Notes: generated by a model from the letters alone, not told the origin. 64,000 nt of DNA from a bacterium (GCA_039630415.1 JBCNVB010000003.1:52962-116961); one strand, 5' to 3'. Counted from the first letter of the stretch, positions 15,615 to 56,752 are shown. A program made the numbers and translations.

Positions 15615-15616
<2 letters not shown>

Positions 15617-16007
15617 ATAGATACCTGGGGTTTATATACATATCCTCCACTTTACTGGGTAATTTGGTTGGACCAAAGGGACCAATCTTATCTACTTTAG
15701 GGGGTAGTTTGGTTGGAATATCTAGCATATCTTCTTCTACGCTGGGAGGTAATTTGGTTATATCAAGGCGAATATTCTTGCCTATTTTAGGGGGTAATTG
15801 GGTTAAACCAATCTCATCTGCCTCATCCATAATCAAATTCACAGGTATAGAATCTAATGATTTTACATATTTATCCTGAGAATACGGGGTTATATCACTA
15901 TCTTTTTTTACAAACTTATCTTTTTCACTATCTGTTGTGTTCTTCCAATAATTCGGAAAATAGTTTATAAAACTTCTATCAACTATGTTATTAAAATCGT
16001 TTGTCAT
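15615..16007 (-). CDS. hypothetical protein with four T[KQ]LP[PS] repeats
   Basis: 130 aa ORF with RBS (AAGGGTG); repeats TQLPPKI / TKLPPSV / TKLPPKV / TKLPSKV. Confidence 0.65.
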
Positions 16008-38240: not shown

Positions 38241-38329
38241 GGAGGGATGGCCGAGCGGTCGAAGGCGGTGGTCTCGAAAACCACAGTGGAGTTATCACTC
38301 CACCGGGGGTTCGAATCCCCCTCCCTCCG
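38241..38329 (+). tRNA. tRNA-Ser (CGA), CCA not encoded
   Basis: Acceptor GGAGGGA/TCCCTCC, anticodon arm GTGGT-CTCGAAA-ACCAC, long variable arm GTGGAG/CTCCAC. Confidence 0.97.
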
Positions 38330-38338
38330 AATAATACC

Positions 38339-39556
38339 ATGGATATTATACAAATCAACAAACTAATCGATACCTGGAAACAACAACTCTCCAAAAATGA
38401 TAACTACCTCATCCTCAAAACAATACAAGAAATAATTAACGTATTCAATAAACTAGAACAACGACAAAAAACAACTTTTCTTAACATCTTTAAAGATATA
38501 CAAAAAAAGGTTTTTAGTCAAGTCTATTCTAATGATCCATTAATTAGAAGAAATGTCGTTATACTTGCCAGTACTTTAGAATCAAACGATATAGTTCTTG
38601 ATGTTCTCAGGTATCTCAAAGTTGAAAAAGACTATGAAAATTTGATAACTTATCTCAGATATCTCGAAAAGTTTAAATCTGTCGGTTTTATAGATAGCTT
38701 AAGTGACTATGCTTTTAATCATTCTTTACCTTTACCAATTAAAATCAGAGTTATATCGATTATAACTTCCATCCTACCTCTCTACAAAGGTAACCAACAA
38801 ATAATTAACAAAATCTTCGACAATATTTCGGAAATTATCAATGATCCTAATAATCAAGCTTATATAGTAATCTACTATGATAATCTCATTTCAGAAACGA
38901 TGGACTACTATACCAATAAAAATCAGCCTAAAGTCGTATCAATTTTCTGCGAGTTATATGACAGTTTGATCATTAGAACTATGGATTTAATAAAACAAAT
39001 AATGAAAGATAAAGTTAAAGAAACGCAAGCTGAGTTAATAGCTGCTTGTATAATATTCTTACTTTTGGCTAAAGCATTACTTGAAAAAATGAATTACAAG
39101 GGTTTTTCATATGAACATTATCAAGACGAAAATATCAAATATTTATTGATCAAAACTATAGGACAATGTGGTGAGCTCTTCAAATTCATGATTAACTTCT
39201 CTGATAAGTACAATTTAACAAATGAAATAGGACAGATTATTAACCAATTAGGTTTGTCAGAATATTTGGTTGAGTTACTATCTAACTCTAATCCAAGGCA
39301 AAAAAAAGATATCTTAAAGTTTTTATATACCTTTGGAATAAAGTTAAGCCAAGATGAATTGAAAACCATCGCAGATTTATGTAAGCATGATTTTGATGAA
39401 GATATTATTAGTGTTTGCCTAGATATATTTGATCATAATCACTACTATGAAGATTTACACTACTTTTCAAAGTACTCTTCTTCTTTCAGTTATCAATTGA
39501 GAGAGAAAATAAAAAATTTGATAGATAAGAGTGGCATGAATCTCAGGGATGGATGA
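38339..39556 (+). CDS. hypothetical alpha-helical (HEAT-like) protein
   Basis: 405 aa ORF; DP.IRRN.V..A and similar helical repeat-like segments. Confidence 0.55.
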   Translation: MDIIQINKLIDTWKQQLSKNDNYLILKTIQEIINVFNKLEQRQKTTFLNIFKDIQKKVFSQVYSNDPLIRRNVVILASTLESNDIVLDVLRYLKVEKDYENLITYLRYLEKFKSVGFIDSLSDYAFNHSLPLPIKIRVISIITSILPLYKGNQQIINKIFDNISEIINDPNNQAYIVIYYDNLISETMDYYTNKNQPKVVSIFCELYDSLIIRTMDLIKQIMKDKVKETQAELIAACIIFLLLAKALLEKMNYKGFSYEHYQDENIKYLLIKTIGQCGELFKFMINFSDKYNLTNEIGQIINQLGLSEYLVELLSNSNPRQKKDILKFLYTFGIKLSQDELKTIADLCKHDFDEDIISVCLDIFDHNHYYEDLHYFSKYSSSFSYQLREKIKNLIDKSGMNLRDG

Positions 39557-40166
39557 TATCGTTTTTATAATAGGTCTTGGAAATCCAGGAAAAAAATATA
39601 AAAATACCCGACATAACGTGGGATTTATTATAGTGGAAAAATTTATTCAAAAATTAGACGCTACACCTCTAAATGATTATAAATTCAGTAGTATCATCTA
39701 TACTCTATATCTACATGATAAAAAGGTAATAATTGCTATGCCTCTGACATTTATGAATCTATCTGGCAACGCAGTCAAGCAAATTATTAACTTTTATAAG
39801 CCACCTAACCTTCAATACTTAGAACTAGGTAAAAAAATATTGGTTGTCCATGACGATATGGACCTTGATATCGGAAAATTTAAGCTAAAATTTGACGGAG
39901 GAGATGCAGGACACAATGGAGTTAAATCTATCATCCAACACATAGGAAAAGATTTCTGTAGACTCAGAGTAGGTATATCTAAACCAGCCGACAAAAATTA
40001 TCAAAAGTACGTACTGGAAGATTTTTTACCCGAAGAAATCATTAAAATAGACACTCTAATACCTTCTCTATGCAGAGTAATAGATAGCTTTATAAGAGAG
40101 GGATTCGATATGACTGTATCAAAAATAGGAACAATAATAACTGCGGGAGGTAGAAAAGATGGATAA
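39549..40166 (+). CDS. pth: peptidyl-tRNA hydrolase
   Basis: GLGNPG.KY..TRHN.GF, P.TFMNLSG, HDD.D, GHNG.KSI, RLRVGI. Confidence 0.96.
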   Translation: MDDIVFIIGLGNPGKKYKNTRHNVGFIIVEKFIQKLDATPLNDYKFSSIIYTLYLHDKKVIIAMPLTFMNLSGNAVKQIINFYKPPNLQYLELGKKILVVHDDMDLDIGKFKLKFDGGDAGHNGVKSIIQHIGKDFCRLRVGISKPADKNYQKYVLEDFLPEEIIKIDTLIPSLCRVIDSFIREGFDMTVSKIGTIITAGGRKDG

Positions 40167-41514
40167 ACAAAAATATTACGAAATAGCTTCTAAACGACTT
40201 ATTCCACATTTCGCAATGTGGAAAGAAATCGAAAAATATGGACCAAGAATCATATCCAAAGGTAAAGGAGTTTATATATGGGACATCGACGGTAATAAAT
40301 ACATAGATGCAATGTCTATTCTATGGGTAGTCAACGTAGGTCACGGAAGAGAAGAAATTATTCAAGCTATGTATGAACAAATGCAAAAAATAAACTACGT
40401 TTCATTGTTTGGTGGATACCACCATGAAAAAGCACTAGAATTAGCAGATTTAATGTGTTCTATCCTGCCGGTTTACTCTGTCTTCTTTTCTAACAGCGGA
40501 GGTGAAGCTATAGAAACAGCTATAAAACTTTCAAGGCAGTACCACTACGTAACCGGTAACCCACAAAAATATAAAATTGTGGGTAGATGGCACTCTTACC
40601 ACGGGGTTACTTATGGCGCTTTGAGTGTATCCGGAATAAGACAAAACAGAAACTTCTTTGAACCTCTACTACCTGGTTTTATCCACTTTGATGTACCATA
40701 TTGCTATCGATGTCCTTTCTCCTTAGAGTATCCTTCTTGCAATTTAAGATGTGCTGATGATTTTGAAAAGTTGGTAGAAAAAGAGGGACCTAAAACTATA
40801 GCTGCGGTAATTGTTGAACCAGTAATGTCAGCTTTGGGATCAGTTTATGCACCAGACATAAAAGAATACTACCGCAGAATAAGAGAAGTATGTGATAAAA
40901 ATGATATTATCCTAATATTTGACGAAGTCAATAATGGATTTGGAAGAACGGGTAAGTTTTTTGCTTATGAGCATACGGGGGTTATCCCTGATATGTTTGT
41001 ATTTGGGAAAGGAATAACAAGTGGTTATGCTCCTTTAGGGGCTACAGCAGTTAGTCAAAAAATAAGTGAAGTTTTCAAGGAATGGATGTTTGTACATGGT
41101 TATACTTTTGGTGGGCATCCTGTTTCAAGCACCGCAGCTATTGAAAATATTAATATAATCCAAAGAGAAAAGCTTTACGAAAATGCCAATAATGTCGGTA
41201 CCTATTTAGGACAAAGATTGCAAGAGTTGAGAGAGTTTGATATTGTTGGGGATGTAAGAGGAATAGGTTTACATTGGTCTATAGAATACGTGGATGATAA
41301 AAAAACCAAAAAAACAATCCCTTCTAAGTTCTGGGTAGCTTCAAGAATAGAAAAAGAGTTATTAAAAAATGGGGTATACTTATCGAGGGCTTCGGTGGAT
41401 AGAACCTACATAGCTCCACCACTCATAATAACTAAAGATGAAATAGATTTTATAATAGAAGCTTTGAAAAAGTCGATATATGCCGTTCAAAAGGAATATA
41501 GGAGCGTTGTTTGA
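40159..41514 (+). CDS. class III PLP aminotransferase (omega-amino acid/BioA-like)
   Basis: SYHG.T.G, EP, FDEV..GFGRTG, PD....KG..SGY.P, HG.TF.GHP. Confidence 0.9.
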   Translation: MDKQKYYEIASKRLIPHFAMWKEIEKYGPRIISKGKGVYIWDIDGNKYIDAMSILWVVNVGHGREEIIQAMYEQMQKINYVSLFGGYHHEKALELADLMCSILPVYSVFFSNSGGEAIETAIKLSRQYHYVTGNPQKYKIVGRWHSYHGVTYGALSVSGIRQNRNFFEPLLPGFIHFDVPYCYRCPFSLEYPSCNLRCADDFEKLVEKEGPKTIAAVIVEPVMSALGSVYAPDIKEYYRRIREVCDKNDIILIFDEVNNGFGRTGKFFAYEHTGVIPDMFVFGKGITSGYAPLGATAVSQKISEVFKEWMFVHGYTFGGHPVSSTAAIENINIIQREKLYENANNVGTYLGQRLQELREFDIVGDVRGIGLHWSIEYVDDKKTKKTIPSKFWVASRIEKELLKNGVYLSRASVDRTYIAPPLIITKDEIDFIIEALKKSIYAVQKEYRSVV

Positions 41515-41560
41515 AGGGTAAGTAGTATTTGATGTAGAAGAAGATAAAGAGATAAGTTGT

Positions 41561-41632
41561 GCCGGTGTAGCTCAGCGGCAGAGCAGGTGATTTGTAATCA
41601 CCAGGTCAGGGGTTCAAATCCCCTCACCGGCT
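41561..41632 (+). tRNA. tRNA-Thr (TGT), CCA not encoded
   Basis: Acceptor GCCGGTG/CACCGGC, anticodon arm GGTGA-TTTGTAA-TCACC, T-loop TTCAAAT. Confidence 0.97.
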
Positions 41633-41642
41633 AATATACACA

Positions 41643-42743
41643 ATGTCTTCAAAAAATCTCCTAATATTCCATGAACTTCTCAAAGCTATGACAGAAAACA
41701 AAGCTTCAGATCTTTACTTAAAACCTTTTCAAGTACCAGTATTCAGAATAGAAGGGGAACTATACCCTATAAAAATTCAAGAACTAACACCTGAATTCAC
41801 AGAAGAAATCCTAACGTCTATTACAACAGTTTCTCAAAAGAAATCTTTTGAAGTATCTCCAGAGCTTAACATGATATACTCATTATCTGACGTAGCTGAT
41901 AGGTTCAGGATCAATTTCTACAAAAATAGGGGATATGTCTCAATGGTTGTTAGGAGAATAATATCAAATGTTCCTACCATAGAAGAACTTAATCTTCCTC
42001 CTATTTTGAAGAAACTGGTTTTGTACAAGAAAGGATTAATTATAGTCTGTGGACCAACAGGTATGGGTAAATCAACCACTCTAGCTGCAATGTTAGATTA
42101 TGTAAACCAAAACTACAAAAAACATATAGTAACGATCGAAGATCCAGTAGAGTACATATTAGAAGACAAAAAATCATATATATCTCAACGAGAGGTAGGG
42201 ATAGATACTAATAGTTTTGCAGAAGCATTAAAAAATGTTGTAAGGCAAACACCAGACATAATAATGGTGGGAGAAACCAGGGATAGTGTTACGGCTACTA
42301 GTATACTACAATTAGCTGAAACTGGACATTTGATCCTAACAACTCTACACTCTCCAAACACTGTCCAGGCAATAGTAAGAATCTTACAGTTTTTTGACCA
42401 ATCACAACATAGAGAAATTGTAGGTTACTTATCTTCTAACCTGATAGCTATAATTAGTCAGAAATTAATTACAAGAATAGATAAAAAAGGTAGAGTACCT
42501 GTAGTAGAGATACTGATGATGAATGCGAGGATGCAGGAACTATTAGATCAAATGGAATTCAAAAAAATGAAAGCTGAAATAGATATGTTTATTCCTGACG
42601 GTATGCAAACTTTTGATTACTCTCTAATAGAACTTTACAAACAAGGATTGATAAGCTTAGAAACAGCGATAGAACATGCAGAAGTACCTCATGATTTGCA
42701 ACTAAAAATAAGAACTATGGGGATAACACCAGGTAAAAGCTAA
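41643..42743 (+). CDS. PilT/PilU family type IV pilus retraction ATPase
   Basis: ASDL, RFR.N, GPTG.GKSTTLAAM, TIEDPVE, QREVG.DT, PD.I.VGE.RD, AETGHL..TTLH, GMQTFD. Confidence 0.92.
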   Translation: MSSKNLLIFHELLKAMTENKASDLYLKPFQVPVFRIEGELYPIKIQELTPEFTEEILTSITTVSQKKSFEVSPELNMIYSLSDVADRFRINFYKNRGYVSMVVRRIISNVPTIEELNLPPILKKLVLYKKGLIIVCGPTGMGKSTTLAAMLDYVNQNYKKHIVTIEDPVEYILEDKKSYISQREVGIDTNSFAEALKNVVRQTPDIIMVGETRDSVTATSILQLAETGHLILTTLHSPNTVQAIVRILQFFDQSQHREIVGYLSSNLIAIISQKLITRIDKKGRVPVVEILMMNARMQELLDQMEFKKMKAEIDMFIPDGMQTFDYSLIELYKQGLISLETAIEHAEVPHDLQLKIRTMGITPGKS

Positions 42744-42779
42744 AATTTAATGTATTAAAATAAATAGGAGGAGATAAAA

Positions 42780-42980
42780 ATGTCTAGAGTTTGTCAGCTA
42801 TCGGGTAAAAAAACAACTACGGGTTACAAAGTAAGCCACTCAAATAGACATACAAAAAGAACATGGAAAGTAAACCTTAGAAAAGTTAAAGTAGGCAATA
42901 AGGTAATCAGAGTATCGGCTAAGTATCTTAAGAAATACGGACTACTTCTCAAAGAAGGGAAAATAATTAAATTAAAATAA
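42780..42980 (+). CDS. rpmB: 50S ribosomal protein L28
   Basis: MSRVCQLSGK....G.KVSHSNR.TKR.W..NL. Confidence 0.95.
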   Translation: MSRVCQLSGKKTTTGYKVSHSNRHTKRTWKVNLRKVKVGNKVIRVSAKYLKKYGLLLKEGKIIKLK

Positions 42981-43004
42981 GCTCAAAGTAGGGAGTGAAA
43001 GAAA

Positions 43005-43304
43005 ATGTTCGCAATTATTGAACTAAAAGGTCATCAATACAAAGTACAGAATAACGAAATAATTGTAACTGAAAAAATAGATCAACAAGAAAATAGTGAA
43101 ATAGAGATCGACAAAGTTCTTCTATTTTACGATGGTAAAGAGTTAAAGGTAGGTAGACCATATTTGAACATGAAAATTAAGGGTAAGATTTTAGAGCACT
43201 TTAAAGGGCCAAAGATAGTGGATTTCAAATATACTCCAAAAAAGAGATATAGAAAGAAAAGAGGACACAGACAAAACTTAACCAAAGTTCAGATAATTTT
43301 TTAG
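43005..43304 (+). CDS. rplU: 50S ribosomal protein L21
   Basis: MFAII...G.QYKV, VG.PY, K.I..FKY..KK.YRK..GHRQ. Confidence 0.96.
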   Translation: MFAIIELKGHQYKVQNNEIIVTEKIDQQENSEIEIDKVLLFYDGKELKVGRPYLNMKIKGKILEHFKGPKIVDFKYTPKKRYRKKRGHRQNLTKVQIIF

Positions 43305-43335
43305 GGGGACAAAGTAAATGTGGGGGAAAGTATAA

Positions 43336-43412
43336 GGTGGGTGTAGCTCAGCGGTTAGAGCAGTGGACTGTGGATCCACGGGTCGGGGGTTCAAATCCCC
43401 TCACCCACCCCA
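43336..43412 (+). tRNA. tRNA-His (GTG) with G-1; CCA encoded
   Basis: G-1 plus GTGGGTG/CACCCAC-C-CCA; anticodon arm GTGGA-CTGTGGA-TCCAC. Confidence 0.97.
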
Positions 43413-43419
43413 ACCCCAA

Positions 43420-44745
43420 ATGACTATTAAAATATCCCAACTCCCAGGTCCAAATGTAACCGAACTCGCTAATCAAGAAAAAGAATTATTAGCTACTTCA
43501 ACCAAATGTTGGGATACACCAGGCGGTCCAATCCATGCCAAAGGAATATACTTCACAGATAAAGACGGCAATACTCTCATGGATTGGACCAACGGAATGG
43601 TTGTTATTCTAGGACATAACCACCCTCAATGGAATAACGCTATTATTGATCAAATCAACAAATTCGTATACTTTAACGGACCAGATTTCGTTTATGATGT
43701 TCAAAAACAAGCCGCAGAAATATTAACAAACATAGCACCAGGTAAATGGAAAAAGAAAGTTTTTTTCTGTAACTCTGGAACTGAAGCAAATGAAGCTGCT
43801 ATCAAAATCGCTAGAATATCGCAAAAAAGAAATCTTGTTTTGGGCTTTATAGGAGGTTTTCATGGCAGAACACAAGGATCGTTATCTGTTACTGCTAGTA
43901 AAGTGGTACAAAGAAAAAACTACACATCTTATCTGAATAACTCCTTTTCCATTCCCTATCCATATTGTTACAGATGCTGGTACAATATGACCTACCCTAG
44001 TTGTGAAATGTACTGTATAAAAATATTGGAAAGATATTTTCAGCACATTATACCTCCGGAAGATGTAGCTGCATTTATATTTGAACCTGTTCAAGGAGAG
44101 GGAGGATATGTAGTACCTCCTAAGGAATCCTTTAAGGTTTTGAAATCAATTTTAGACAAGTATGGGATTTTGATGATAGCTGACGAGGTTCAAACGGGTT
44201 TTGGAAAAAGTGGTTATATGTTTGCTAGTACTTATTTTGAGGTAGAGCCAGATATAATTTCTCTAGCTAAGGCAATAGCTAATGGACTACCTATGGGAGC
44301 AACAATTTTCAGATCAGAACTTGATTTCAAAGAACAAGGAATGCATTCTAACACTTTTGGAGGTAATGCTTTATCTTGTAGATCGCTAATAGAAACCTAT
44401 AGGATAATCCAGGAAGAAAATTTACTTGAGCATGTAAGAAAGATAGGAGATTATTTCAAAGAAAAGCTTGAAGAACTAAAAGAAAGTTCAAGATTTGTAG
44501 GTGATGTAAGAGTATTAGGTATGCTTATAGGAATTGAATTGGTCAAGGATAAGAAAACAAAGGAACCAGCAAAGGAAATAAGAGATTTTGTCATAAGAAG
44601 AGCTTATGAAAAAGGATTATTAATGCTTTCATGTGGGCAATCTGTAATAAGAATAACAGCTTCATACATAATAACTAAGCAAGAAGTTGATGAAGGAGTA
44701 AAGATAATAAAGGAAGCGCTGGAGGAGGCAGAAAAAATATTCTAA
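43420..44745 (+). CDS. class III PLP aminotransferase (4-aminobutyrate/acetylornithine-type)
   Basis: Start moved to ATG 43420 because the track start lies inside tRNA-His; NSGTEANEAA, FHGRT, EPVQGEGGY, DEVQTG.G, AKAIA.G.P. Confidence 0.9.
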   Translation: MTIKISQLPGPNVTELANQEKELLATSTKCWDTPGGPIHAKGIYFTDKDGNTLMDWTNGMVVILGHNHPQWNNAIIDQINKFVYFNGPDFVYDVQKQAAEILTNIAPGKWKKKVFFCNSGTEANEAAIKIARISQKRNLVLGFIGGFHGRTQGSLSVTASKVVQRKNYTSYLNNSFSIPYPYCYRCWYNMTYPSCEMYCIKILERYFQHIIPPEDVAAFIFEPVQGEGGYVVPPKESFKVLKSILDKYGILMIADEVQTGFGKSGYMFASTYFEVEPDIISLAKAIANGLPMGATIFRSELDFKEQGMHSNTFGGNALSCRSLIETYRIIQEENLLEHVRKIGDYFKEKLEELKESSRFVGDVRVLGMLIGIELVKDKKTKEPAKEIRDFVIRRAYEKGLLMLSCGQSVIRITASYIITKQEVDEGVKIIKEALEEAEKIF

Positions 44746-44763
44746 CTAAAATCATCTCTAAAA

Positions 44764-45251
44764 ATGTTAAAAAATTAGCCATCTTAATCTTAACGATACT
44801 CTTATCCACTACTATTACCCTGGCCCAAAACTTGATAAAAATAGAAAAATTCTTCCTGGAATACCCCTCCTATTACATAAAAGTTGAGTTATATAATCAG
44901 CACAAAACGGTAGTGCTATTAGATTCCAGAAACCAAAACAGAACAATATATATAGAATACATGAAGTCAACCGATATAAGAAAACACATCCAACAGAACT
45001 TGAAAGATCTTGAGGATATGTATGAGAAGAAGTATAAAGTAAGTACTAATAAAGTGAGTGAATACAAAAATAGAAAGCTTTATGTATTGGAGTATAATTT
45101 TACGCAGATAGATGGTGATTACAGAAGTTTGAAATATTTCTGGGAAGTAGGTGACGGTGAGTATTTATGTTTATACTGCTTATCTCCTATATCTGAGTTT
45201 GATCAAGTTTATCAGGATTTTGTAAAAATTTGGGAGTCGGTAAAGGAGTGA
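44764..45251 (+). CDS. exported hypothetical protein (PsbP/DcrB-like fold possible); start region appears frameshifted
   Basis: Frame of the 44832 ORF extends upstream as KKLAILILTILLSTTITLAQ (signal peptide), but ATG 44764 is out of frame by one A. Confidence 0.5.
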
Positions 45252-45258
45252 TAAAAAA

Positions 45259-46641
45259 GTGACCAACTACATAGATTTTAGTCAGGAAGATCAAACCGAA
45301 ATCAAAAGAGAAAAACTAGATTTGCCAGATCTTTCTGAATTAGAAGTTGTTAGATACTTTACAAATTTGAGCAGAATAAATTGGGCGATAGATGTTGGCT
45401 TTTATCCTTTGGGATCATGTACGATGAAGTATAATCCGAAAGTTAACGATTATATAGCTACTAAATTTTACAAACTCCATCCCTATCTAGATGAGGTGAG
45501 TCACATATTAGAGGTACTAAAGGAATTAGAGAAAAAGATAGCATATTTAGTTGGGTTAGACTATGTATCACTATTACCTGCGGCTGGTGCTCATGGAGAA
45601 TATACTTGTTTGCTAATAGCTAAAAAATACTTTGAAAGTATGGGTCAGAAAAGGGAGATAGTAATAGTTCCTGATAGTGCACACGGAACTAATCCTGCTT
45701 CCGCTTCAATGGCAGGGTTTAACGTCATAACTGTAAAAAGTAATTCTGAAGGACAGGTTGATATAGATGATCTTAAAAGTAAGCTCAGTTCTAATGTAGC
45801 GGTATTTATGATAACTAATCCAAATACTTTGGGAATATATGAGAAAAGAATAGAGGAGATAACTTTGTTATGTAAGAGTTGTGGAGCTTTAAACTACTAT
45901 GATGGAGCTAATTTTAATGCTATAGTTGGGAAATTAAGGCCTGGGGATATGGGTTTTGATATGGTACATTTAAATTTGCATAAGACGTTTTCGACACCTC
46001 ATGGTGGTGGTGGGCCAGGTGCTGGTCCTATCGCTGTAAGAAGTTTCCTTAAAGACTTTCTACCCATACCTATCATTAACCGTAAAAATGGTAAGTACTA
46101 TCTGGACTTTGATCTACCTAATAGTATTGGAATGATAAGGGATTTTTGGGGTAATTTTGGGGTACTCATAAGAGCGTTGGCTTACATAATGTCTTATGGT
46201 AATCAAATTAGTAAAGTGTCTGAATTTGCTGTTCTTAATGCTAACTATCTTAGGAATAAACTCAAAAAGTATTTTATTGATGTATTTAATCAGCCTTTTT
46301 GTGCTCATGAGTTTGTTTTGTCTGCCTCAAATTACAAGTCTAAGGGTATAAGAGCAATGGATATTGCGAAAAGAATGTTAGATTATAATGTTCATTCACC
46401 GACCACTTATTTTCCACTGATTGTTGAAGAGTGTTTGATGATAGAACCTACTGAAACTGAAAATCTTGAAACTTTAGAGTATTTTGAGCAAGTTGTTAGC
46501 AAAATAGTTGAGGAGATTGATACTAATCCAGAGCTAGTGAAGAATGCTCCGCATACGACGTTTGTTAAGAGAATAAATGAGGCTTTAGCATCTAGAGAAC
46601 CAAAACCTACGAATAAAACTGTAGTGGAAGCTAAGACATAG
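45259..46641 (+). CDS. gcvPB: glycine dehydrogenase (decarboxylating) subunit 2
   Basis: YPLGSCTMKYNP, AGAHGE, SAHGTNPASA, HLNLHKTFSTPHGGGGPG, IEPTETE. Confidence 0.95.
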   Translation: MTNYIDFSQEDQTEIKREKLDLPDLSELEVVRYFTNLSRINWAIDVGFYPLGSCTMKYNPKVNDYIATKFYKLHPYLDEVSHILEVLKELEKKIAYLVGLDYVSLLPAAGAHGEYTCLLIAKKYFESMGQKREIVIVPDSAHGTNPASASMAGFNVITVKSNSEGQVDIDDLKSKLSSNVAVFMITNPNTLGIYEKRIEEITLLCKSCGALNYYDGANFNAIVGKLRPGDMGFDMVHLNLHKTFSTPHGGGGPGAGPIAVRSFLKDFLPIPIINRKNGKYYLDFDLPNSIGMIRDFWGNFGVLIRALAYIMSYGNQISKVSEFAVLNANYLRNKLKKYFIDVFNQPFCAHEFVLSASNYKSKGIRAMDIAKRMLDYNVHSPTTYFPLIVEECLMIEPTETENLETLEYFEQVVSKIVEEIDTNPELVKNAPHTTFVKRINEALASREPKPTNKTVVEAKT

Positions 46642-46650
46642 CAAACATAA

Positions 46651-48123: not shown

Positions 48124-48136
48124 CATTTTTTTTACA
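48120..48136 (+). promoter_or_regulatory. candidate OmpR/PhoP-type direct-repeat box (TTAACA-N5-TTTACA)
   Basis: Hexamers 11 bp apart, ending about 77 nt upstream of the 48214 start. Confidence 0.35.
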
Positions 48137-48213
48137 AAAAATCGGTTTTTTTAAAGGTATAGTCATAAACTTTATATTACAACTAAATTAATCAAATAAA
48201 GGAGGTAAAATTT

Positions 48214-49653: not shown

Positions 49654-49657
49654 ACTT

Positions 49658-50776
49658 ATGATAAATCAAGCACTAAACCTAGATTTACCTAAAAAGAAAT
49701 GGTTGGTTATACATTATGGTGCTTCTGATAATGACTTAGCTAAATTTGTTTACTCGGATGTTGATGAGATGGAAAAAATTGGTTCTAATGATAGTATGCA
49801 TATAGTTTCTGTGTTAGATTTGGGACATCACAAAGGGCAAAATTTGTATGAAGGGACTAATGTTTTTTACATAACAAAAGACTCTCAGGAAGGTAAAATT
49901 AATTCTCAGATAGTAAAGAGTTTAGGTCAAGTTAATACTGCTGATCCACAGTTTATGTCTTCGATTTTAAGTGAGATAATTGATAAGTTTCCGGCTGATA
50001 ATATAGCTTTAATTATAAGCAGTCATGGAATGGGTTGGAAGGGTGTAGTTGTAGATCATGGTCAAAAAGACTACATGACAATCAATGAGTTACGGGAAGC
50101 TCTTGAAAAAGTAGTAAAGGAAAAGGGAAGAAAATTAAACATAATAGCGTTTGATGCTTGTTTAATGGCTATGGCCGAAGTAGGTTATGAACTAAGAAGC
50201 GTAACTAAGTATATGGTTGCTAGTCAGAAAATCCATGGGTTAGGTGGATATGATTATACTACTTTACTTAAAGGTGTTCGAGGTAAACCTAAACAAGTAG
50301 CTATTGCTTTTGTTAATGCTGCTAAAAAATATTACGAAAATATTAATAGTTTGTCGGCTGTCGATTTAAGTAAAGCTTCAAAATTAGCTAAAGTATTGGA
50401 TTCTTTTGCTTCTACTTTACTAAAATTCAGCGATAACGATATAACAAAAGTGAAGGACAAATTAGTTAAAGTTCAAAAGTTTGACTTTGATTTCAAAGAC
50501 CTTAAACATTTTATGGAATTGATAGTTGAAGATAAAGAAATCAACTTTGAGATTAGACAGAAAGCTCAGGAGGTTATACAGGTTTTGGATGAATACGTTG
50601 TTAAAGAGTTTCACATTCCACAATATCCAAATGCAAATGGTGTAAATATTGAATTCGATCTAAGAGAAAATCAGCAGAAGTTGAAAGAATATAAACAAAC
50701 ACTTTTTGCCAAAGATACTAAATGGGATGAGATGATCTTATGTTTTGATGCATGCAGGGAACGTGTTTATAATTGA
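49658..50776 (+). CDS. clostripain-family (C11) cysteine peptidase, tandem paralog
   Basis: KKKWLVIHYG.SDNDL, SHG.GW, FDACLMAMAEVGYEL shared with the upstream gene. Confidence 0.88.
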   Translation: MINQALNLDLPKKKWLVIHYGASDNDLAKFVYSDVDEMEKIGSNDSMHIVSVLDLGHHKGQNLYEGTNVFYITKDSQEGKINSQIVKSLGQVNTADPQFMSSILSEIIDKFPADNIALIISSHGMGWKGVVVDHGQKDYMTINELREALEKVVKEKGRKLNIIAFDACLMAMAEVGYELRSVTKYMVASQKIHGLGGYDYTTLLKGVRGKPKQVAIAFVNAAKKYYENINSLSAVDLSKASKLAKVLDSFASTLLKFSDNDITKVKDKLVKVQKFDFDFKDLKHFMELIVEDKEINFEIRQKAQEVIQVLDEYVVKEFHIPQYPNANGVNIEFDLRENQQKLKEYKQTLFAKDTKWDEMILCFDACRERVYN

Positions 50777-50804
50777 AGAACTAAATCATAAGTCGGGGGA
50801 AAGT

Positions 50805-51761
50805 ATGAGAGTAAGCATAGTCGGAGTAAATGGATTAGTAGGAGCTGAATTACGAAAAATTATAAAAGAAAATACAGACTGGCAAATTCACGAAATAACT
50901 TCAAAAGACAGTATAGATTACTCTGATTTAGAAGCCAGTGAAATAGTTTTTCTATGTGTGGATTCTGAAATAAGTGCTCAAATAGCTCCCAAAATATACG
51001 ATAAAACCACAGTTATAGATAATAGCTCGTATTTTAGATTATTTGACGATGTACCATTAGTAGTTCCAGAAATCAACATGGTAACAAATTGGAAAGATAG
51101 GAAATCCAAAAAAATAATAGCAAATCCAAATTGTTCAACTATACAGCTGGTGATACCTTTAAAACCAATACTTGACCAGTATGGGATAGAAGAAGTATTT
51201 GTATGTACTTATCAATCTGTGTCAGGAGCTGGGAAAAAAGCTCTCGAAGAATTCAAAGATCAAATAAAAAATAATCATAACTATCACAAATACTTACCAT
51301 ATCCTATGGCTTACAATCTATTCCCAGTAATTGGGGATTTCGATGAAACTAACGTGGAAAATATAGTATGTACTGAGGAAAAGAAGATTATTTTTGAAAC
51401 GAGAAAAATTTTGGAAGCAAAGTTTGATATATATCCATACACTGTTAGAGTACCTGTTTTAAGGTCTCATAGTCAAGCGGTTTTTGTAAGAACGATAGAA
51501 GATTTTAAATACGAAGAAATGATTAACTTGTTTTATGAATATTCTATGAATGGAAGTTTGAAGGTATGGATAGATCATGGTGTTGTTCCACAACCATACA
51601 CAGTTTCCAATACAAAAGAGGTTCATATAGGTAGGATAAGGAAGATTGGTAAGAGATTGCTAGGATTCTGGTCAGTTTCAGATAATCTTCTTAGGGGAGC
51701 TGCATATAATGCCTTCCTTATCGCAAAAAATATAATCAAGTACACCTTAATACCTAGTTAG
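50805..51761 (+). CDS. asd: aspartate-semialdehyde dehydrogenase
   Basis: Start moved to ATG 50805 behind GGGGGA; VIDNSS.FR, PLVVPEIN, ANPNCST, TYQSVSGAG, DNL.RGAA.N. Confidence 0.94.
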   Translation: MRVSIVGVNGLVGAELRKIIKENTDWQIHEITSKDSIDYSDLEASEIVFLCVDSEISAQIAPKIYDKTTVIDNSSYFRLFDDVPLVVPEINMVTNWKDRKSKKIIANPNCSTIQLVIPLKPILDQYGIEEVFVCTYQSVSGAGKKALEEFKDQIKNNHNYHKYLPYPMAYNLFPVIGDFDETNVENIVCTEEKKIIFETRKILEAKFDIYPYTVRVPVLRSHSQAVFVRTIEDFKYEEMINLFYEYSMNGSLKVWIDHGVVPQPYTVSNTKEVHIGRIRKIGKRLLGFWSVSDNLLRGAAYNAFLIAKNIIKYTLIPS

Positions 51762-51777
51762 TCCCAATTTATTAAAA

Positions 51778-52938
51778 ATGAAGAAAGTTTGTATTTTGGG
51801 GTCTACTGGATCAATAGGGATTCAAACCATAGAAGTTATTTCCAAATACCCAGATCACTTTAAAGTACATTCCATAGCTGCTTATGGAAGAAATCCTGAA
51901 AGTATAATACAACAGATCACCAAGTACAAACCCAAATACGTTGCAGTGTTTGATAGTGTTACCGCACAAAAAATATCTTCTCAGTTAGGAATAAAAGTTC
52001 TTACTGGAATGGAAGGTTTAATAGAACTGGTATCTGACGAGGAAATAGATGTTGTTGTAAGTGGAATGATAGGGTTTGTGGGTTTAAAACCAACTTTAAA
52101 GGCTTTGGAAAACGGAAAATTTGTGGCTTTGGCTAACAAGGAATCAATAGTGGTTGGTGGACCACTGATTAAACAGTATCTATCCCAAATAGTGCCTGTT
52201 GACAGCGAACATAGTGCCCTTTTCCAACTACTTCAAAACAAAAATAAAGAAGAAGTGAAAGAAATAATACTTACTGCTTCTGGAGGACCATTTTGGAAAA
52301 TGGACATATCTGATCTTAGGAATGTTAAAATAGAAGATGCTATTAAACATCCTGTATGGAAGATGGGGCATAAGATAACGGTAGATAGTGCAACTTTGAT
52401 GAATAAAGCTCTAGAGATTATAGAAGCTCACTTTTTATTCGGCTTTGAACCTGAAAAAATAAAAGCTATCATTCATCCACAAAGTTATATACACTCTTTG
52501 GTAGTTTTTGTAGATAACAATGTTTTTGCACATGTTGCTAAACCGGATATGAAGATACCTATTCATTATGCTTTATTTTATCCACAAAGAGTAGAAAATG
52601 ATTTTTCGAGTTTTTCTGTAACGGGTTTGTATGAAAAGAAATTGGAATTTTATGAAATTCCTGGTCATTTTAAGTCAATAAGATTCGCTTATTCTGTCTT
52701 ATCAAAGGGAGGAGTTTTTCCGACCATTCTGAATGCTTCTAATGAGGTAGCTGTTGATCTTTTTAGCAAAGGAGTTGTAGGATTCTTAGATATTTTTAGG
52801 ATTGTAGAGGATACGCTTAGCAGTTATAGTGGACCAAACTATTTGAGTTTGAGTGTTTCTGTGTTAGAAGAGGTGGATTCATGGGCTAGACAAACTGCTT
52901 CTAAATTAGCAACAAAATCTAAAATCTACAGAATATGA
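51778..52938 (+). CDS. dxr: 1-deoxy-D-xylulose 5-phosphate reductoisomerase
   Basis: LGSTGSIG, LANKES, PVDSEH, TASGGPF, HP.W.MG.KITVDSA, NASNEVAV. Confidence 0.96.
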   Translation: MKKVCILGSTGSIGIQTIEVISKYPDHFKVHSIAAYGRNPESIIQQITKYKPKYVAVFDSVTAQKISSQLGIKVLTGMEGLIELVSDEEIDVVVSGMIGFVGLKPTLKALENGKFVALANKESIVVGGPLIKQYLSQIVPVDSEHSALFQLLQNKNKEEVKEIILTASGGPFWKMDISDLRNVKIEDAIKHPVWKMGHKITVDSATLMNKALEIIEAHFLFGFEPEKIKAIIHPQSYIHSLVVFVDNNVFAHVAKPDMKIPIHYALFYPQRVENDFSSFSVTGLYEKKLEFYEIPGHFKSIRFAYSVLSKGGVFPTILNASNEVAVDLFSKGVVGFLDIFRIVEDTLSSYSGPNYLSLSVSVLEEVDSWARQTASKLATKSKIYRI

Positions 52939-53393
52939 CGAAAATATATGCGACGAATAAGAAGATAAGAGAGTACAATGTAATAGAATCATTAGAGGCT
53001 GGTATATCTTTGTTGGGACCTGAAGTTAAAGCAATAAGAAATGGGAATATTGTTATAAATGAAGGTTTTGTGAGGATAAAAGATGGTGAAGCTTTTTTAG
53101 TTAATGTAAACATTTCCCCTGTTTCTCCTACTTCTTTTTTTGAAAAGTTTAATCCTCTCAGGGTTAGAAAACTTCTCCTAAGAAAAAATCAAATAAAAAG
53201 GCTTGTTGGTAAAATAAAAGAAAAAGGGGTAACTATTATACCTTCCAAAGTCTATACCAAAGGAAGATGGATAAAGGTTGAAATAGCCTTGGTTAGACAT
53301 AAAACAGTTCATGATAAAAGACAAAAGATTATTCAAAGGGAAGCACAGAGAAGAATCAAAGAGTTACTCAAGCATTCCAGAAAAGTCAGATAA
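52935..53393 (+). CDS. smpB: SsrA-binding protein
   Basis: N.K...Y.....EAGI.L.G.EVK.IR, RKLLL.K.QI, HDKR. Confidence 0.94.
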   Translation: MTKIYATNKKIREYNVIESLEAGISLLGPEVKAIRNGNIVINEGFVRIKDGEAFLVNVNISPVSPTSFFEKFNPLRVRKLLLRKNQIKRLVGKIKEKGVTIIPSKVYTKGRWIKVEIALVRHKTVHDKRQKIIQREAQRRIKELLKHSRKVR

Positions 53394-53446
53394 AAACACT
53401 ATGAGAACAAAAAAGGATTTATTAACAAAATGTAGAAAATATAAGT

Positions 53447-54082
53447 ATGATGGGTAAAAATATAAAGATAATAAAATCCATATTTCCTGGCAGCGAGGAC
53501 TTTTATGCACGTTTGCATGAGTGTTCTCTAATTCTAGTTGAATTATGTAAAGAAATAGCTAACTTATTTGATGATCCAACTGAAGAAAAATACGAAAAAA
53601 TAGTGGAGTTAGAAAACAAAGCTGATAAAATACTAGTAGAGTATAGGAAAAGACTGAACGAAGTGTTCATAACTCCTCTAGATAGAGAAGATCTACATAG
53701 GATAATAGTGTATTTAGATGAAGTCATAGATTATGCTAAATCAGCAGCAGAAAAAAAATATTTATACAAACCTAAGCAAAAAGTAGAATTTTTCTATCAA
53801 ATGATAGACATTATGATACAAATTTCTGAAAAAATTATGAAAATAATTGAAATGATGAAAAATCCATCAAATCACATGCATGATGTTGTAAATCAAATCT
53901 ACCAGTTAGAAAAACAAGCAGACTCTATAAATAGAAGGGGGATAATTTGGCTTTTTGAAAACAGTCTGGATCCAACAGAATTGATTAAGAACAAGGACAT
54001 ACTTTTCCAGCTAGAGGAAACTATTGATAGAATGCAGAGATTAGCTGTAACTGTAGAAAATAGCGTCTTTAAGAACCTATAA
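53447..54082 (+). CDS. DUF47 (PhoU-like) phosphate transport accessory protein
   Basis: LE..AD......L...FITPLDRED; adjacent to a Pit transporter. Confidence 0.88.
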   Translation: MMGKNIKIIKSIFPGSEDFYARLHECSLILVELCKEIANLFDDPTEEKYEKIVELENKADKILVEYRKRLNEVFITPLDREDLHRIIVYLDEVIDYAKSAAEKKYLYKPKQKVEFFYQMIDIMIQISEKIMKIIEMMKNPSNHMHDVVNQIYQLEKQADSINRRGIIWLFENSLDPTELIKNKDILFQLEETIDRMQRLAVTVENSVFKNL

Positions 54083-54101
54083 ACACATTGTTGATAAACG
54101 T

Positions 54102-55106
54102 ATGGAAAGTTTGTTTGTTATTTTGGTTCTAGTTGTAATAGCGGCATGGTTATTTGATTTTGCGAATGGTTTAAATGATGCTGCGAATGCTATAGCTACC
54201 GTGGTTTCAACTAGAGTATTAACCCCTATTGCAGCGGTAGTAATGGCTGCTATTTTTAACTTTATAGGAGCACTAATCTCTGTGGAAGTTGCCACTACAA
54301 TAGGTAAAGGATTAGTTGACCCAAAGTTTATTGATATATATGCTATTTTTGCTGCTGCTTTGTCTGCATTTCTTTGGACTTTATTAACTTCTTTGCTTGG
54401 ATTGCCTATTAGTTGCAGTCATGCACTGATTGGCGGAATAATTGGTGCAGCTATTTCACACGCCTCCTTTGACGTTATAAACTATAAAAATCTTTTTAAC
54501 AAGGTATTTATTCCATCGATAGTTGCCCCTTTTGTAGGTATTTTTGCTGCATTGATATTTTCTCTGTTATCCTATTTTGCTGCTTCCTTTTTGAAACTTA
54601 TGAATGCAAATAAAGCGTTTAGAATATTACAACTTTTTTCTGCTTCTTTTATGGCTCTTAGTCACGGTGCTAATGACGCTCAAAAAACTATGGGTATTAT
54701 AGCTATGGCATTGGTCGTAGCCGGTGTTACTAACACTTTTCAAATTCCTCTATGGGTAAAATTGTCAGCTGCTTTCTTTATGTTTCTCGGAACTTTAGTA
54801 GGTGGTTGGAGAGTTATAAAAACCATGGGAATGAAATTGACCAAGCTAAGACCGATAGATGGTTTTTCTGCTGAAACTTCTGCAGCTACTACCATAATTG
54901 TCGCCTCGCAATTGGGTATGCCTATAAGCACTACTTATGTTATAGCGGCTTCTATTATGGGGGTTGGATTAACTAAGAAAATTACTGCTGTTAAGTGGAG
55001 CCTCTTTTTCACCATCTTAACCACTTGGTTACTTACTGTACCTATGTCAGCTTTGATTGCTTTTGTTATATACAAATCCATAAAATATCTGTCTCTTCTT
55101 TTCTAG
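54102..55106 (+). CDS. inorganic phosphate transporter (PiT family)
   Basis: NG.ND.ANAIAT.VSTR, GLPIS.SH, SHG.ND.QK.MG, G.P.STT. Confidence 0.94.
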   Translation: MESLFVILVLVVIAAWLFDFANGLNDAANAIATVVSTRVLTPIAAVVMAAIFNFIGALISVEVATTIGKGLVDPKFIDIYAIFAAALSAFLWTLLTSLLGLPISCSHALIGGIIGAAISHASFDVINYKNLFNKVFIPSIVAPFVGIFAALIFSLLSYFAASFLKLMNANKAFRILQLFSASFMALSHGANDAQKTMGIIAMALVVAGVTNTFQIPLWVKLSAAFFMFLGTLVGGWRVIKTMGMKLTKLRPIDGFSAETSAATTIIVASQLGMPISTTYVIAASIMGVGLTKKITAVKWSLFFTILTTWLLTVPMSALIAFVIYKSIKYLSLLF

Positions 55107-55184
55107 AATTTTTTCCTGAAATTTCTGCTTAAGTTTTTGCTTTTAAATCCAAGGCAACTTTCAAAGCTTTATATTATCGTCAAA

Positions 55185-55225
55185 TTTACAAAAATTTTAC
55201 AACTAATTTCTTACGAAAATTAACA
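55185..55225 (+). promoter_or_regulatory. candidate OmpR/PhoP-type direct-repeat array (TTTACA-N5-TTTACA ... CTTACG-N4-TTAACA)
   Basis: Repeated hexamers upstream of the 55270 gene. Confidence 0.4.
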
Positions 55226-55269
55226 TATAGAAATACACATAGTGTAAAATCCTAAGGAGGTGGACAAAG

Positions 55270-55728
55270 ATGGTAAGAGAAGTAAAATACGGAAGTTATC
55301 TTGGATTTGAAGGAATAAAGGTTAAGGGGCCAAAAGGGGAAAAACTCGTAGAGATATCTGGTGACAAAGTAGAAGTAACACCTTCAGATTCTTTTGGGGA
55401 AGGAGTACTAAAGGGTATAGGTAGGTCAATATTTGGATCTTTTTATCCATTTCTTACTGGAATTGGTAAGTCTATAGAAAGCTATAGTGATGCATATGAG
55501 GCAGCTAAGGAAGTAGGTTTAGGAGAGTGGGGTAGTGCTAAGGCTGGTTTGAAAGCTGCTTTTCTCGGAGGAATAAAAGGATTTGCTCATGGATTTATTG
55601 ACTCTGTAGCAATAGGTGGTATAACGGTTTTGGGAGGTTTAGTAGGAGGACCTTTGGGAGCTATAGCTGGAGCTACTTTGGGAGCAGGAATATACAATGT
55701 TGTAAAAGATGCAATAAGACATGGATAA
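55270..55728 (+). CDS. Gly-rich hydrophobic (glycine-zipper) hypothetical protein
   Basis: Perfect RBS TAAGGAGGTG; C-terminal GxxxG series (GGLVGGPLGAIAGATLGAG). Confidence 0.8.
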   Translation: MVREVKYGSYLGFEGIKVKGPKGEKLVEISGDKVEVTPSDSFGEGVLKGIGRSIFGSFYPFLTGIGKSIESYSDAYEAAKEVGLGEWGSAKAGLKAAFLGGIKGFAHGFIDSVAIGGITVLGGLVGGPLGAIAGATLGAGIYNVVKDAIRHG

Positions 55729-55739
55729 TAAGTAGTGGG

Positions 55740-55781
55740 ATAGTTTAGGTTGAATAGTTTAGGTTGAATAGTTTAGGTTGA
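55740..55781 (+). repeat. 14-bp perfect tandem repeat ATAGTTTAGGTTGA x3
   Basis: Read directly from the sequence. Confidence 0.92.
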
Positions 55782-55836
55782 GGGGGTTTATTTCTGACTT
55801 TGTCTGAGTTTTGCGGTTCAAGTCCGCACACCCCTA
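55781..55836 (+). pseudogene. tRNA-Pro-derived element lacking the anticodon arm
   Basis: TGCGG-TTCAAGT-CCGCA-CACCCCT-A versus tRNA-Pro CGCGG-TTCAAGT-CCGCG-CACCCCG-A; 5' GGGGG and a D-arm remnant. Confidence 0.7.
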
Positions 55837-55919
55837 ACCTTACACCTAAGCCTTATAGTTTCATAGGTTTGTTGATAGTACTAGGATATGTTTAATAACA
55901 AACGATTGTGAATGTCGGT

Positions 55920-56031
55920 AAAGATGGTAAGAGAGGTAAGAGGACAATGTTGTTTTTTCATTTGCTGAAGGGGTATTAAAAGGAGCTGGAGTGTCAACAC
56001 TTTTTTTTATTATGATAATGGATTTATTGAT
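55920..56031 (+). pseudogene. decayed paralog of the 55270 Gly-rich gene
   Basis: Three colinear blocks: MVREV start (19/20 nt identical), SFAEGVLKGAG versus SFGEGVLKGIG, ATGGATTTATTGA identical. Confidence 0.72.
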
Positions 56032-56104
56032 ATGTTTATTAGATAGTGGAGGTTTTGGATAAGGGGTTGTAGAATAGAATAGGGAAGAGGAGGGTAATTG
56101 GGTG

Positions 56105-56179
56105 CGGGGTGTAGCTCAGACTGGTTAGAGCGCGTGCCTTGGGAGCACGAGGTCCGCGGTTCAAGTCCGCGCACCCCGA
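56105..56179 (+). tRNA. tRNA-Pro (TGG), CCA not encoded
   Basis: Acceptor CGGGGTG/CACCCCG, anticodon arm CGTGC-CTTGGGA-GCACG. Confidence 0.97.
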
Positions 56180-56188
56180 CACTACAAC

Positions 56189-56752
56189 ATGATCATCAAA
56201 ACTAAATTTATCTCCTCTTCTTTTGATAATAATACATACCCTAAAGGAATAGCTTGTGTAGAATGCACCATAAAAACTAACGATGCCGAAATATCTTTCC
56301 TCTTTGTCCGACAAGCAGATGACAACACGATCGAATCATTCGTCCAAAACGATAATCTATGTCAAAAAGAAGCTATACACAAAACCATCAAAATACTTAA
56401 GTCTATAGAAAACTATCATTTTGACAACTACGAATTAACCCAAATAGAAGAATATAAAGATGATTCGCATAAGAAAATTTCATATAAACAAAAGGTTATT
56501 GAATTACTAAATTTACTCAATTGGAATATCGATAAACTATCAAAACTTGTGCAGAAGAACCTTAAAAAGAAATTAAGTGAATTAAATGAAAATGAATGGA
56601 TCAAAATCTATGAATACCTTAAAAGTAAATTAATCGTTGAAAATAACCAAAGAGATAGTTATTCTCACAAAAATGTAAATTTAGAAACAGCAAAACCTAA
56701 ACCTATTGAAGAAGAAATAATAAAACCTGAAGAATGGGAAGAAATATTGTGA
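56189..56752 (+). CDS. hypothetical protein
   Basis: 187 aa ORF with typical composition, 1 nt from the next gene. Confidence 0.6.
   Translation: MIIKTKFISSSFDNNTYPKGIACVECTIKTNDAEISFLFVRQADDNTIESFVQNDNLCQKEAIHKTIKILKSIENYHFDNYELTQIEEYKDDSHKKISYKQKVIELLNLLNWNIDKLSKLVQKNLKKKLSELNENEWIKIYEYLKSKLIVENNQRDSYSHKNVNLETAKPKPIEEEIIKPEEWEEIL

Follow-up and report, generated by a model that had tools for sequence, protein, structure and literature searches.

In a 64,000-nucleotide stretch of a bacterial genome (GCA_039630415.1 JBCNVB010000003.1:52962-116961; hereafter, the window), four tRNA genes are each followed, after only 9 or 10 nt, by the start codon of a gene on the same strand. This raises the question of whether the tRNA takes part in the expression of the gene behind it. 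The preliminary description of the window had proposed that it may, either because RNase Z cuts just behind the discriminator base and releases mRNAs with a fixed leader of about 10 nt, or because the folded tRNA positions the ribosome in the absence of a Shine–Dalgarno (SD) sequence. The tRNA genes were called by ARAGORN and the discriminators were placed by acceptor-stem pairing; reading of the sequence gave exactly the same four spacers and ATG positions. None of the four spacers contains a G, and only one of the four tRNAs, that for His, has its CCA encoded. The genes that follow are unrelated to one another: one encodes a PilT-like ATPase and one a class-III aminotransferase, and two have no family assignment. 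ARAGORN found five tRNA genes in all (Ser, Thr, His, Pro and Gly), the fifth of which, Gly, faces a convergent gene, and it is correct for the window that every co-oriented gene behind a tRNA starts in this way. We give about even chances to the reading that these are tRNA-led operons, in which translation is initiated independently of an SD, on a trailer that is unstructured and resembles a loading site for Rho as well.

The source assembly (G000; 1.40 Mb in 31 contigs, 32% G+C, 89% complete) contains 42 tRNA genes, no two of which are adjacent. Genes were called and assigned to SD classes with a simple caller written for this analysis, and the calls cover about 95% of the genome. A co-oriented open reading frame (ORF) starts within 40 nt of the discriminator behind 33 tRNAs, or 31 of the 42 after two doubtful cases were dropped (tRNA-Trp, with an ATG at 9 nt that opens a frame of seven codons, and tRNA-Lys(ctt), with a GTG that has no family support). 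With the same two cases dropped, supported starts lie at 8–10 nt behind 15 of the 42 tRNAs, and a second group lies at 12–29 nt; none is closer than 8 nt. The peak at 9–10 nt, which had been set beforehand as a test, is thus found genome-wide. By comparison, only 2.7% of 1104 co-oriented gene–gene pairs are 8–10 nt apart (29% overlap, and 16% are 0–7 nt apart), giving a binomial p = 1.6e-13 for the tRNAs. On the upstream side, a co-oriented gene ends within 75 nt of 27 of the 42 tRNAs. The tRNAs are therefore placed between co-oriented genes without room for promoters or terminators, as is typical of mitochondria. The genes behind them include dnaA, topA, infA, accA, gmk, upp, hemE, a hemL-like gene, gatC, clpP, ybaB, an HtrA-like protease gene and a pilT-like gene, among others. 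A −10-like box ends 5–44 nt upstream of 24 of the 42 tRNAs, compared to 14.6% of random positions (p = 2e-10), and most tRNAs seem to have a promoter box of their own. Since the downstream genes have no room for their own promoter or SD, they would be co-transcribed with the tRNA.

An SD was defined as a match of at least 5 nt to AGGAGG, 4–13 nt before the start; the standard anti-SD was assumed, because the 3' end of the 16S rRNA was not found in the assembly. By this measure, 472 of 1326 gene calls (36%) have an SD, in keeping with the earlier statement that many other genes here do. At the junctions, only two of 31 starts have one, with spacers of 25 and 40 nt, and the reported lack of SDs thus holds. 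No G at all is present in 24 of the 31 junction spacers of 8–30 nt, compared to 20 of 257 gene–gene spacers (Fisher p = 4e-17; this set of 31 includes the doubtful Trp and Lys(ctt) junctions). The possibility that the starts had been called too far upstream was considered and rejected. A scan of up to 80 codons in each of the 31 junction genes of the gene set, Lys(ctt) included, found no in-frame start further along that would have an SD by the above measure for 27 of them, and only the Cys and Lys(ctt) genes had candidate starts further downstream, both behind a weak AAGGA. Pfam matches begin close to the N-terminus in the junction proteins listed in Table 1, and that of an AAA-ATPase junction protein also starts within residues 2–11; for the PilT-like ATPase, the match from residue 8 identifies the junction ATG as the start. 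The N-termini of the junction genes are also kept across species, and the spacers have diverged. Judging from these profiles and the scan, the junction starts are real and not displaced to SD sites downstream, and initiation there would have to be independent of an SD. The region from −10 to +30 has a predicted pairing of 0.17–0.28, compared to 0.31–0.43 in other genes, making the junction genes the least structured class. An SD in the leader that is brought to the AUG by the fold of the tRNA was set aside, as only some tRNAs were seen by eye to have a GGAGG-like run at a distance of up to about 20 nt from their 5' end (e.g., Leu(caa), Ser(gct), Pro(ggg) and Pro(tgg)).

The layout was compared with that in two genomes of the same genus (G004 and G007), one of the same order from another family (G005) and an outgroup (G006). 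The tRNAs read were 42 of 44 in G004 (two at contig edges were left out), 19 of 38 in G007 (from the top of the score list, skipping two near contig ends), 15 of 29 in G005 and 13 of 36 in G006. In G004, an ORF starts with ATG at 4–14 nt behind 22 tRNAs, at 21–24 nt behind five and at 35 nt behind one, and in G007 an ATG lies at 8–12 nt behind seven of the 19. In G005, no start was found within 14 nt, and about seven of the 15 tRNAs had a T-run directly behind them (by eye); in the outgroup, one of 13 had a start within 14 nt. The layout is thus common to the two congeners and was not seen in the sister family or the outgroup, although these genomes are kin and do not represent independent samples. 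The leaders in G004 and G007 are C-poor as well (about 3% C). At orthologous junctions the linkage is kept, and the spacer length varies between 8 and 29 nt: it is the same or nearly so in G000 and G004 for His (10 and 10 nt), Pro (9 and 9) and Ser(cga) (9 and 10), and differs for Phe (9 and 13), Arg(cct) (19 and 9), Val(tac) (23 and 12), Gly(tcc) (25 and 8) and Arg(tcg) (29 and 11). The proposed fixed leader of about 10 nt is therefore not upheld, and the peak at 9–10 nt is better understood as a pile-up at a floor. The shortest spacers are 8 nt in G000, and 4 nt (doubtful) and 7 nt in G004; mRNA starts at the tRNA 3' end or a few nucleotides from it, as in mitochondria, were not found in either genome.

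To what, then, does this floor refer? Considering all spacers of up to 14 nt in the three congeners, the mean distance from discriminator to start is 9.6 nt for tRNAs that encode CCA (n = 8) and 9.9 nt for those that do not (n = 37; p = 0.61). Counted from the end of the CCA, the former group would average 6.6 nt (p = 1.6e-4). The gene for the signal recognition particle (SRP) RNA (G000:C5:31626-31721) has the same geometry: the ATG at 31731, which opens a gene of about 1300 aa, lies 9 nt past the end of the Rfam match, and 11 unpaired nt separate it from the terminal helix, compared to 10–11 for a tRNA with a spacer of 9–10 nt. Thus, the distance starts at the folded helix and not at the mature 3' end.

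The sequences that flank the tRNA genes differ greatly in composition between the two sides. The leaders contain 2–4% C from −40 to −1 and at most 10% to about −80, and G rises to 25–34%, the reverse of what is seen at loading (rut) sites for Rho. In the trailers, the first 10 nt contain 2% G and 36% C, and more C than G is found up to about +120. In codons 2–30 of the 31 junction genes, the skew peaks at synonymous third positions (G, 6.2% compared to 12.5% elsewhere, p = 1e-6; C, 22.8% compared to 12.6%, p = 9e-11) and fades by codons 60–89, which argues for selection on the nucleotides rather than the protein. The same type of trailer is found without an adjacent ORF behind tRNA-Ser(tga), Lys(ttt), Leu(tag), Thr(cgt) and Gln (for the first three, the first 100 nt contain 2 G and 35 C, 4 G and 30 C, and 2 G and 28 C, respectively) and also behind the RNase P RNA and tmRNA genes, and is therefore a property of stable-RNA genes as such. 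Behind these genes the trailer would be free of ribosomes, whereas most trailers overlap a translated gene. As given in the available portion of PMC6407284, the rut criterion asks for a window of about 78 nt in which C exceeds G and, further, for C residues at regular intervals and a pause site downstream. In the trailers, the highest C/G ratio over 78 nt has a median of 3.5, compared to 1.44 at random positions (p = 5e-13). A ratio above 1 is reached in 39 of 41 trailers (69% at random), and a ratio of at least 3 in 27 of 41 (15% at random). By the C-over-G criterion alone, the trailer looks like a match to the published composition rule for Rho loading. The genome encodes rho (TIGR00767, 575 bits, above the cut-off), and 20 kb of the window contained three intrinsic terminator matches, compared to 8.4 expected.

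In the reading that we favour, stable-RNA genes (standalone tRNAs and the SRP RNA) would head transcription units in this genus. A C-free, purine-rich leader, often with a TAGAAT-type −10 box, would precede the tRNA, and the next gene, without promoter or SD of its own, would start as near to the folded RNA as the ribosome can get, leaving about 10–11 nt unpaired from the end of the acceptor stem to the AUG; longer spacers without G, reaching about 30 nt, are also found. Initiation would rely on a trailer and early coding region so nearly free of G that no stable structure is possible. At the same time, the C-rich, G-poor tract of about 100–120 nt has the composition of a rut site. Untranslated transcripts would probably be terminated at this tract and trimmed back to the tRNA, and translated transcripts would be read on, so that ribosome loading and Rho would compete on the trailer, and a single strong promoter could supply tRNA in abundance and mRNA in smaller amounts. 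The 5' side of the tRNA would be cut by RNase P, and separation of tRNA and mRNA would not depend on a canonical RNase Z; candidates encoded in the genome are RNase E/G and RNase Y.

Several observations weigh against this reading. Genes and SD classes were assigned by a crude caller. The rut test is a loose one, as the 69% of random stretches (of 128 nt) that also hold a 78-nt window with C/G above 1 demonstrate, and the excess of C over G is weakest in the junction genes with spacers of 9–10 nt. The trailers of G004 and G007 are G-poor, but contain only 18.7% and 16.8% C, respectively; being hardly C-enriched, they suggest that the Rho part may apply mainly to this species. When the G-rich leader was included, the predicted accessibility of the trailer was no better than with random flanks. 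Finally, with a genome that is 89% complete, any gene can be called absent only on the strength of seven relatives, which are themselves incomplete.

Table 1. Positions of the junction features in the window, followed by further junction genes of the genome whose N-termini are supported by Pfam matches. Distances are counted from the discriminator to the start codon.
Feature	Position	Strand	Start codon, distance	Remarks
tRNA-Gly(CCC)	15544-15617	+		internal contrast; followed by a convergent gene, no G-free trailer
5'-3' exonuclease gene	37391-38239			upstream of tRNA-Ser(CGA)
tRNA-Ser(CGA)	38241-38329	+		ARAGORN; no encoded CCA; begins 1 nt past the exonuclease stop codon
Ser spacer AATAATACC	38330-38338	+	ATG at 38339, 9 nt	no G, no SD
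405-aa ORF behind tRNA-Ser(CGA)	38339-39556	+	ATG, 9 nt	no Pfam family; orthologue in G004 starts 10 nt past tRNA-Ser(CGA)
TAGTAT box	41523-41528			−10-like, upstream of tRNA-Thr(TGT)
tRNA-Thr(TGT)	41561-41632	+		ARAGORN; no encoded CCA
Thr spacer AATATACACA	41633-41642	+	ATG at 41643, 10 nt	no G
PilT-like secretion ATPase (T2SSE)	41643-42743	+	ATG, 10 nt	Pfam match from residue 8
tRNA-His(GTG)	43337-43412	+		ARAGORN; encoded CCA 43410-43412, discriminator 43409; L21 gene ends 32 nt upstream
His spacer CCAACCCCAA	43410-43419	+	ATG at 43420, 10 nt	no G; G004, 10 nt; G007, 11 nt; sequence different in each
Class-III aminotransferase behind tRNA-His	43420-44745	+	ATG, 10 nt	N-terminus kept from the ATG on in G004 and G007
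TAGAAT box	56070-56075			upstream of tRNA-Pro(TGG), within C-free leader
tRNA-Pro(TGG)	56105-56180	+		ARAGORN; discriminator 56179; no encoded CCA
Pro spacer CACTACAAC	56180-56188	+	ATG at 56189, 9 nt	no G; same sequence in G004
187-aa ORF behind tRNA-Pro(TGG)	56189-56752	+	ATG, 9 nt	no Pfam family
TopA (Toprim domain), behind tRNA-Thr(ggt)			TTG, 9 nt	Pfam match from residue 2
Upp, behind tRNA-Met(cat) (C10)			GTG, 9 nt	Pfam match from residue 6
DUF503 protein, behind tRNA-Ser(gga)			ATG, 21 nt	Pfam match from residue 3
LAB_N protein, behind tRNA-Arg(tcg)			ATG, 29 nt	Pfam match from residue 5
GNAT acetyltransferase, behind tRNA-Tyr(gta)			ATG, 16 nt	Pfam match from residue 7
AccA, behind tRNA-Val(gac)			ATG, 25 nt	Pfam match from residue 8
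YbaB, behind tRNA-Ser(gct)			ATG, 10 nt	Pfam match from residue 8

The best placed of the alternatives, although we think it unlikely, is punctuation of the mitochondrial kind, in which a cut after the discriminator frees an mRNA whose leader is about 10 nt long and the CCA is added later. CCA is not encoded in 34 of the 42 tRNA genes, and the genome has two genes of the PolyA_pol family; a cut at the discriminator would also explain why the spacing is counted from this base irrespective of an encoded CCA. Very short leaders seem usable in this organism, since ten SD-less genes in the genome have a TAGAAT exactly 9 nt before the start codon and may constitute a class of leaderless or near-leaderless mRNAs. 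The junction mRNAs would not themselves be leaderless, with the AUG at the 5' end, as a cut at the discriminator would still leave at least 8 nt. The enzyme is the main difficulty. No match to RNase Z (TIGR02651) above the cut-off was found in any of seven genomes of the genus (71–90% complete), and in this genome there were only matches of 18–20 bits to generic metallo-β-lactamase proteins. The best candidate for a divergent RNase Z, a 320-aa metallo-β-lactamase protein (L049:853-1815), had generic matches only and was rejected. The first trailer base is C in 24 of the 42 tRNAs, and C at this position disfavours RNase Z. Of the pair of activities that excise mitochondrial tRNAs, only RNase P (5' side) is represented in the genome, by its RNA (197 bits); RNase Z (3' side) was not found. 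Furthermore, a floor at 8 nt would not be needed for a freed leader, but spacers below 8 nt are missing from this genome, and the SRP RNA, which is not a substrate of RNase Z, has the same spacing. Thus, the interpretation in the preliminary description is partly supported, by the anatomy, the genome-wide peak and the real starts, whereas RNase Z and the fixed leader length are not upheld.

Also encoded in the genome are RNase E/G, RNase Y, RNase PH and PNPase; RNase J was not found there. The two PolyA_pol-family genes (L050 and L051; G000:C3:58518-58883 and G000:C10:137217-137618) may encode two enzymes, one adding CC and the other A, in keeping with the C or CC that is often encoded after the discriminator. 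A specific processing stem formed by leader and trailer was considered and rejected, as the predicted duplex had −6.5 kcal/mol, compared to −6.3 kcal/mol for permuted pairs (p = 0.30). A role of the flanks as insulators of tRNA folding was not supported either: the probability of the cloverleaf pairs was no higher with native than with random genomic flanks (0.68 and 0.67 at 37 °C; 0.49 and 0.53 at 75 °C, respectively).

More doubtful is the explanation that compaction alone is at work, i.e., that genes have drifted up to a steric or processing limit, that the flanks serve only the tRNA (in termination and exonucleolytic trimming) and that the arrangement has no regulatory meaning. The dense coverage of the genome by gene calls, the free variation of orthologous spacers and the presence of the same trailer composition where no ORF follows are all consistent with this. 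However, compaction leaves unexplained why SDs are absent at the junctions when 36% of genes keep one, why synonymous sites within the first 30 codons have been altered in composition, and why tRNA-plus-gene modules are kept across species, two of them apparently duplicated as units.

It is also conceivable, if quite improbable, that the folded tRNA or SRP RNA itself places the small ribosomal subunit, a helix 10–11 nt before the AUG replacing the SD helix. The SD/anti-SD helix usually sits in a cleft of the small subunit, which the terminal helix of the folded RNA would occupy instead. The sharp floor and the mode at 8–10 nt, measured from the helix, and the equal geometry of the SRP RNA favour this model. 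The short spacers have no sequence motif in common, and the ybaB orthologues have exchanged an SD and a 21-nt spacer (G004) for no SD and a 10-nt spacer (G000). Against it, about half of the junction genes are SD-less and have spacers of 12–40 nt, and close proximity is therefore not required. In addition, no hairpin near −10 was found in SD-less genes elsewhere in the genome, and a general −10 hairpin in all such genes was rejected. In an extended form, docking of the terminal helix of a stable RNA in place of the SD helix would amount to a third mode of start selection, in which ribosome loading, tRNA maturation and Rho termination compete and the output of dnaA, topA, infA, accA and gmk is tied to tRNA synthesis; we hold this to be very improbable.

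Promoters hidden inside the tRNA genes (e.g., in the T-loop) that drive the junction genes independently of tRNA transcription are highly implausible: T-loops such as TTCGAAT and TTCAAAT loosely resemble TAGAAT, but lack the essential A in position 2 of the −10 hexamer, the 5' untranslated region would be the C-rich acceptor strand rather than leaderless, and a consensus scan of the window scored none.

Two pairs of loci in the genome are of interest in relation to the linkage between tRNA and gene. Outside the window, at G000:C8:6194-6269, ARAGORN called a tRNA-Leu(TAG) that is a 76-nt type-I tRNA; its acceptor stem and leader are those of tRNA-Pro(TGG), and the true long-arm tRNA-Leu(TAG) is found on contig C10. 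The ORF behind this Pro-like tRNA (L103) is a paralogue of the ORF behind tRNA-Pro(TGG) in the window, and tRNA-Pro(TGG) in G004 is preceded by the same leader as the Pro-like tRNA. This looks like a duplicated tRNA-plus-gene module in which the anticodon was changed from TGG to TAG. Likewise, two tRNA-Glu(TTC) genes are followed by similar-looking ORFs at 25 and 8 nt, respectively (loci G000:C10:147327-148243 and G000:C25:1749-2006). The N-termini of these ORFs are alike by eye, and Pfam AIM24 is shown for the C10 copy only; the two pairs would be a second duplicated module.

Some individual junctions also have unusual features. At the tRNA-Trp locus (G000:C18, ~14190-14224, minus strand), the ATG at 9 nt is followed by a run of ten Ts and is out of frame with an ORF that encodes a signal peptide. 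In G007 (L088), the ATG is located 8 nt behind tRNA-Trp and is also followed by a ten-T run, out of frame with a long signal-peptide ORF. In both genomes, the frames would be joined by a single additional base or by a −1 slip within the T run; G004 has an in-frame GTG and no T run. The T run may reflect either programmed slippage or a homopolymer assembly error. The infA gene behind tRNA-Asp (L120, G000:C22:14431-14727) encodes a 33-residue, lysine-rich extension before the IF-1 domain, and a similar N-terminal extension is present in infA of G004. Behind the RNase P RNA gene (L052:1501-1813), the only canonical in-frame start of the next ORF (L052:1773-2891) is located inside the 3' end of the RNA, and no in-frame ATG, GTG or TTG occurs in about 150 nt of C-rich sequence that follows the RNA. 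In the sister-family genome G005, T-runs are found 2–10 nt past the discriminator without a separate hairpin (L005, L006, L007, L008, L013, L015 and L004), and the tRNA itself may be the terminator stem in these cases.

How does this arrangement compare to known systems? Punctuation of animal mitochondrial transcripts by tRNAs was reportedly described by Ojala, Montoya and Attardi in 1981. The present genome resembles mitochondria in having tRNAs among co-oriented genes with almost no spacer, mRNAs without promoter or SD of their own, and an available RNase P. It differs from them in being that of a free-living bacterium of 1.4 Mb, in the promoter box at most tRNAs, in the asymmetry between C-free and G-free flanks, in spacers of at least 8 nt rather than 0–3 nt, and in that no RNase Z gene was found (for mitochondrial punctuation, see the accessible part of the review PMC3790967). 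Judged from its sequence, the genome does not belong to the mitochondrial type, since two of the features that define this type, RNase Z and starts that abut the tRNA, were not found. Among bacteria, E. coli has operons of tRNA and mRNA such as thrU-tyrU-glyT-thrT-tufB and metY-nusA-infB. As in those operons, tRNA and mRNA here would share a transcript whose parts are separated by endonucleases. The secG-leuU and metT operons of E. coli are further examples, according to the portion of PMC2241853 available. Such operons number only a handful in E. coli, and their intergenic regions, SDs and terminators are of the usual kind; in the present genome, about three quarters of the tRNA genes lead an SD-less gene at 8–40 nt. 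A Rho-dependent terminator is located behind tyrT in E. coli. The trailers here resemble Rho terminators in that a C-rich, G-poor, unstructured tract of about 80–120 nt stands behind an untranslated RNA gene in a genome that encodes rho, and differ from them in that the tract mostly overlaps the start of a translated gene and that termination is only predicted. In plant mitochondria, t-elements, which are tRNA-shaped structures, set mRNA ends through tRNA-processing enzymes (PMC1920247, as far as its accessible text goes). These are organellar, tRNA-like remnants, whereas the structures described here are functional bacterial tRNA genes.

In the portions of the literature that were available, we found no account of genome-wide, tRNA-led, SD-less genes in a bacterium. 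A mitochondria-like layout on this scale in an uncultivated, free-living hot-spring bacterium and its close relatives thus appears to be new, and the mechanism offered for it is a proposal. Punctuation by tRNAs has been treated as a hallmark of organelles, and bacterial tRNA–mRNA operons as rare exceptions. Here, in a free-living thermophile, about three quarters of the tRNA genes stand directly before SD-less housekeeping genes, such as topA, hemE and the pilT-like gene, in a genus without a detected RNase Z, on which CCA-less tRNAs usually depend. If the proposed mechanism is true, tRNA synthesis, transcription termination and translation initiation would be decided on one and the same RNA, and SD-independent initiation would have a measurable geometry. 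It would also raise the question of how CCA-less tRNAs mature without RNase Z.

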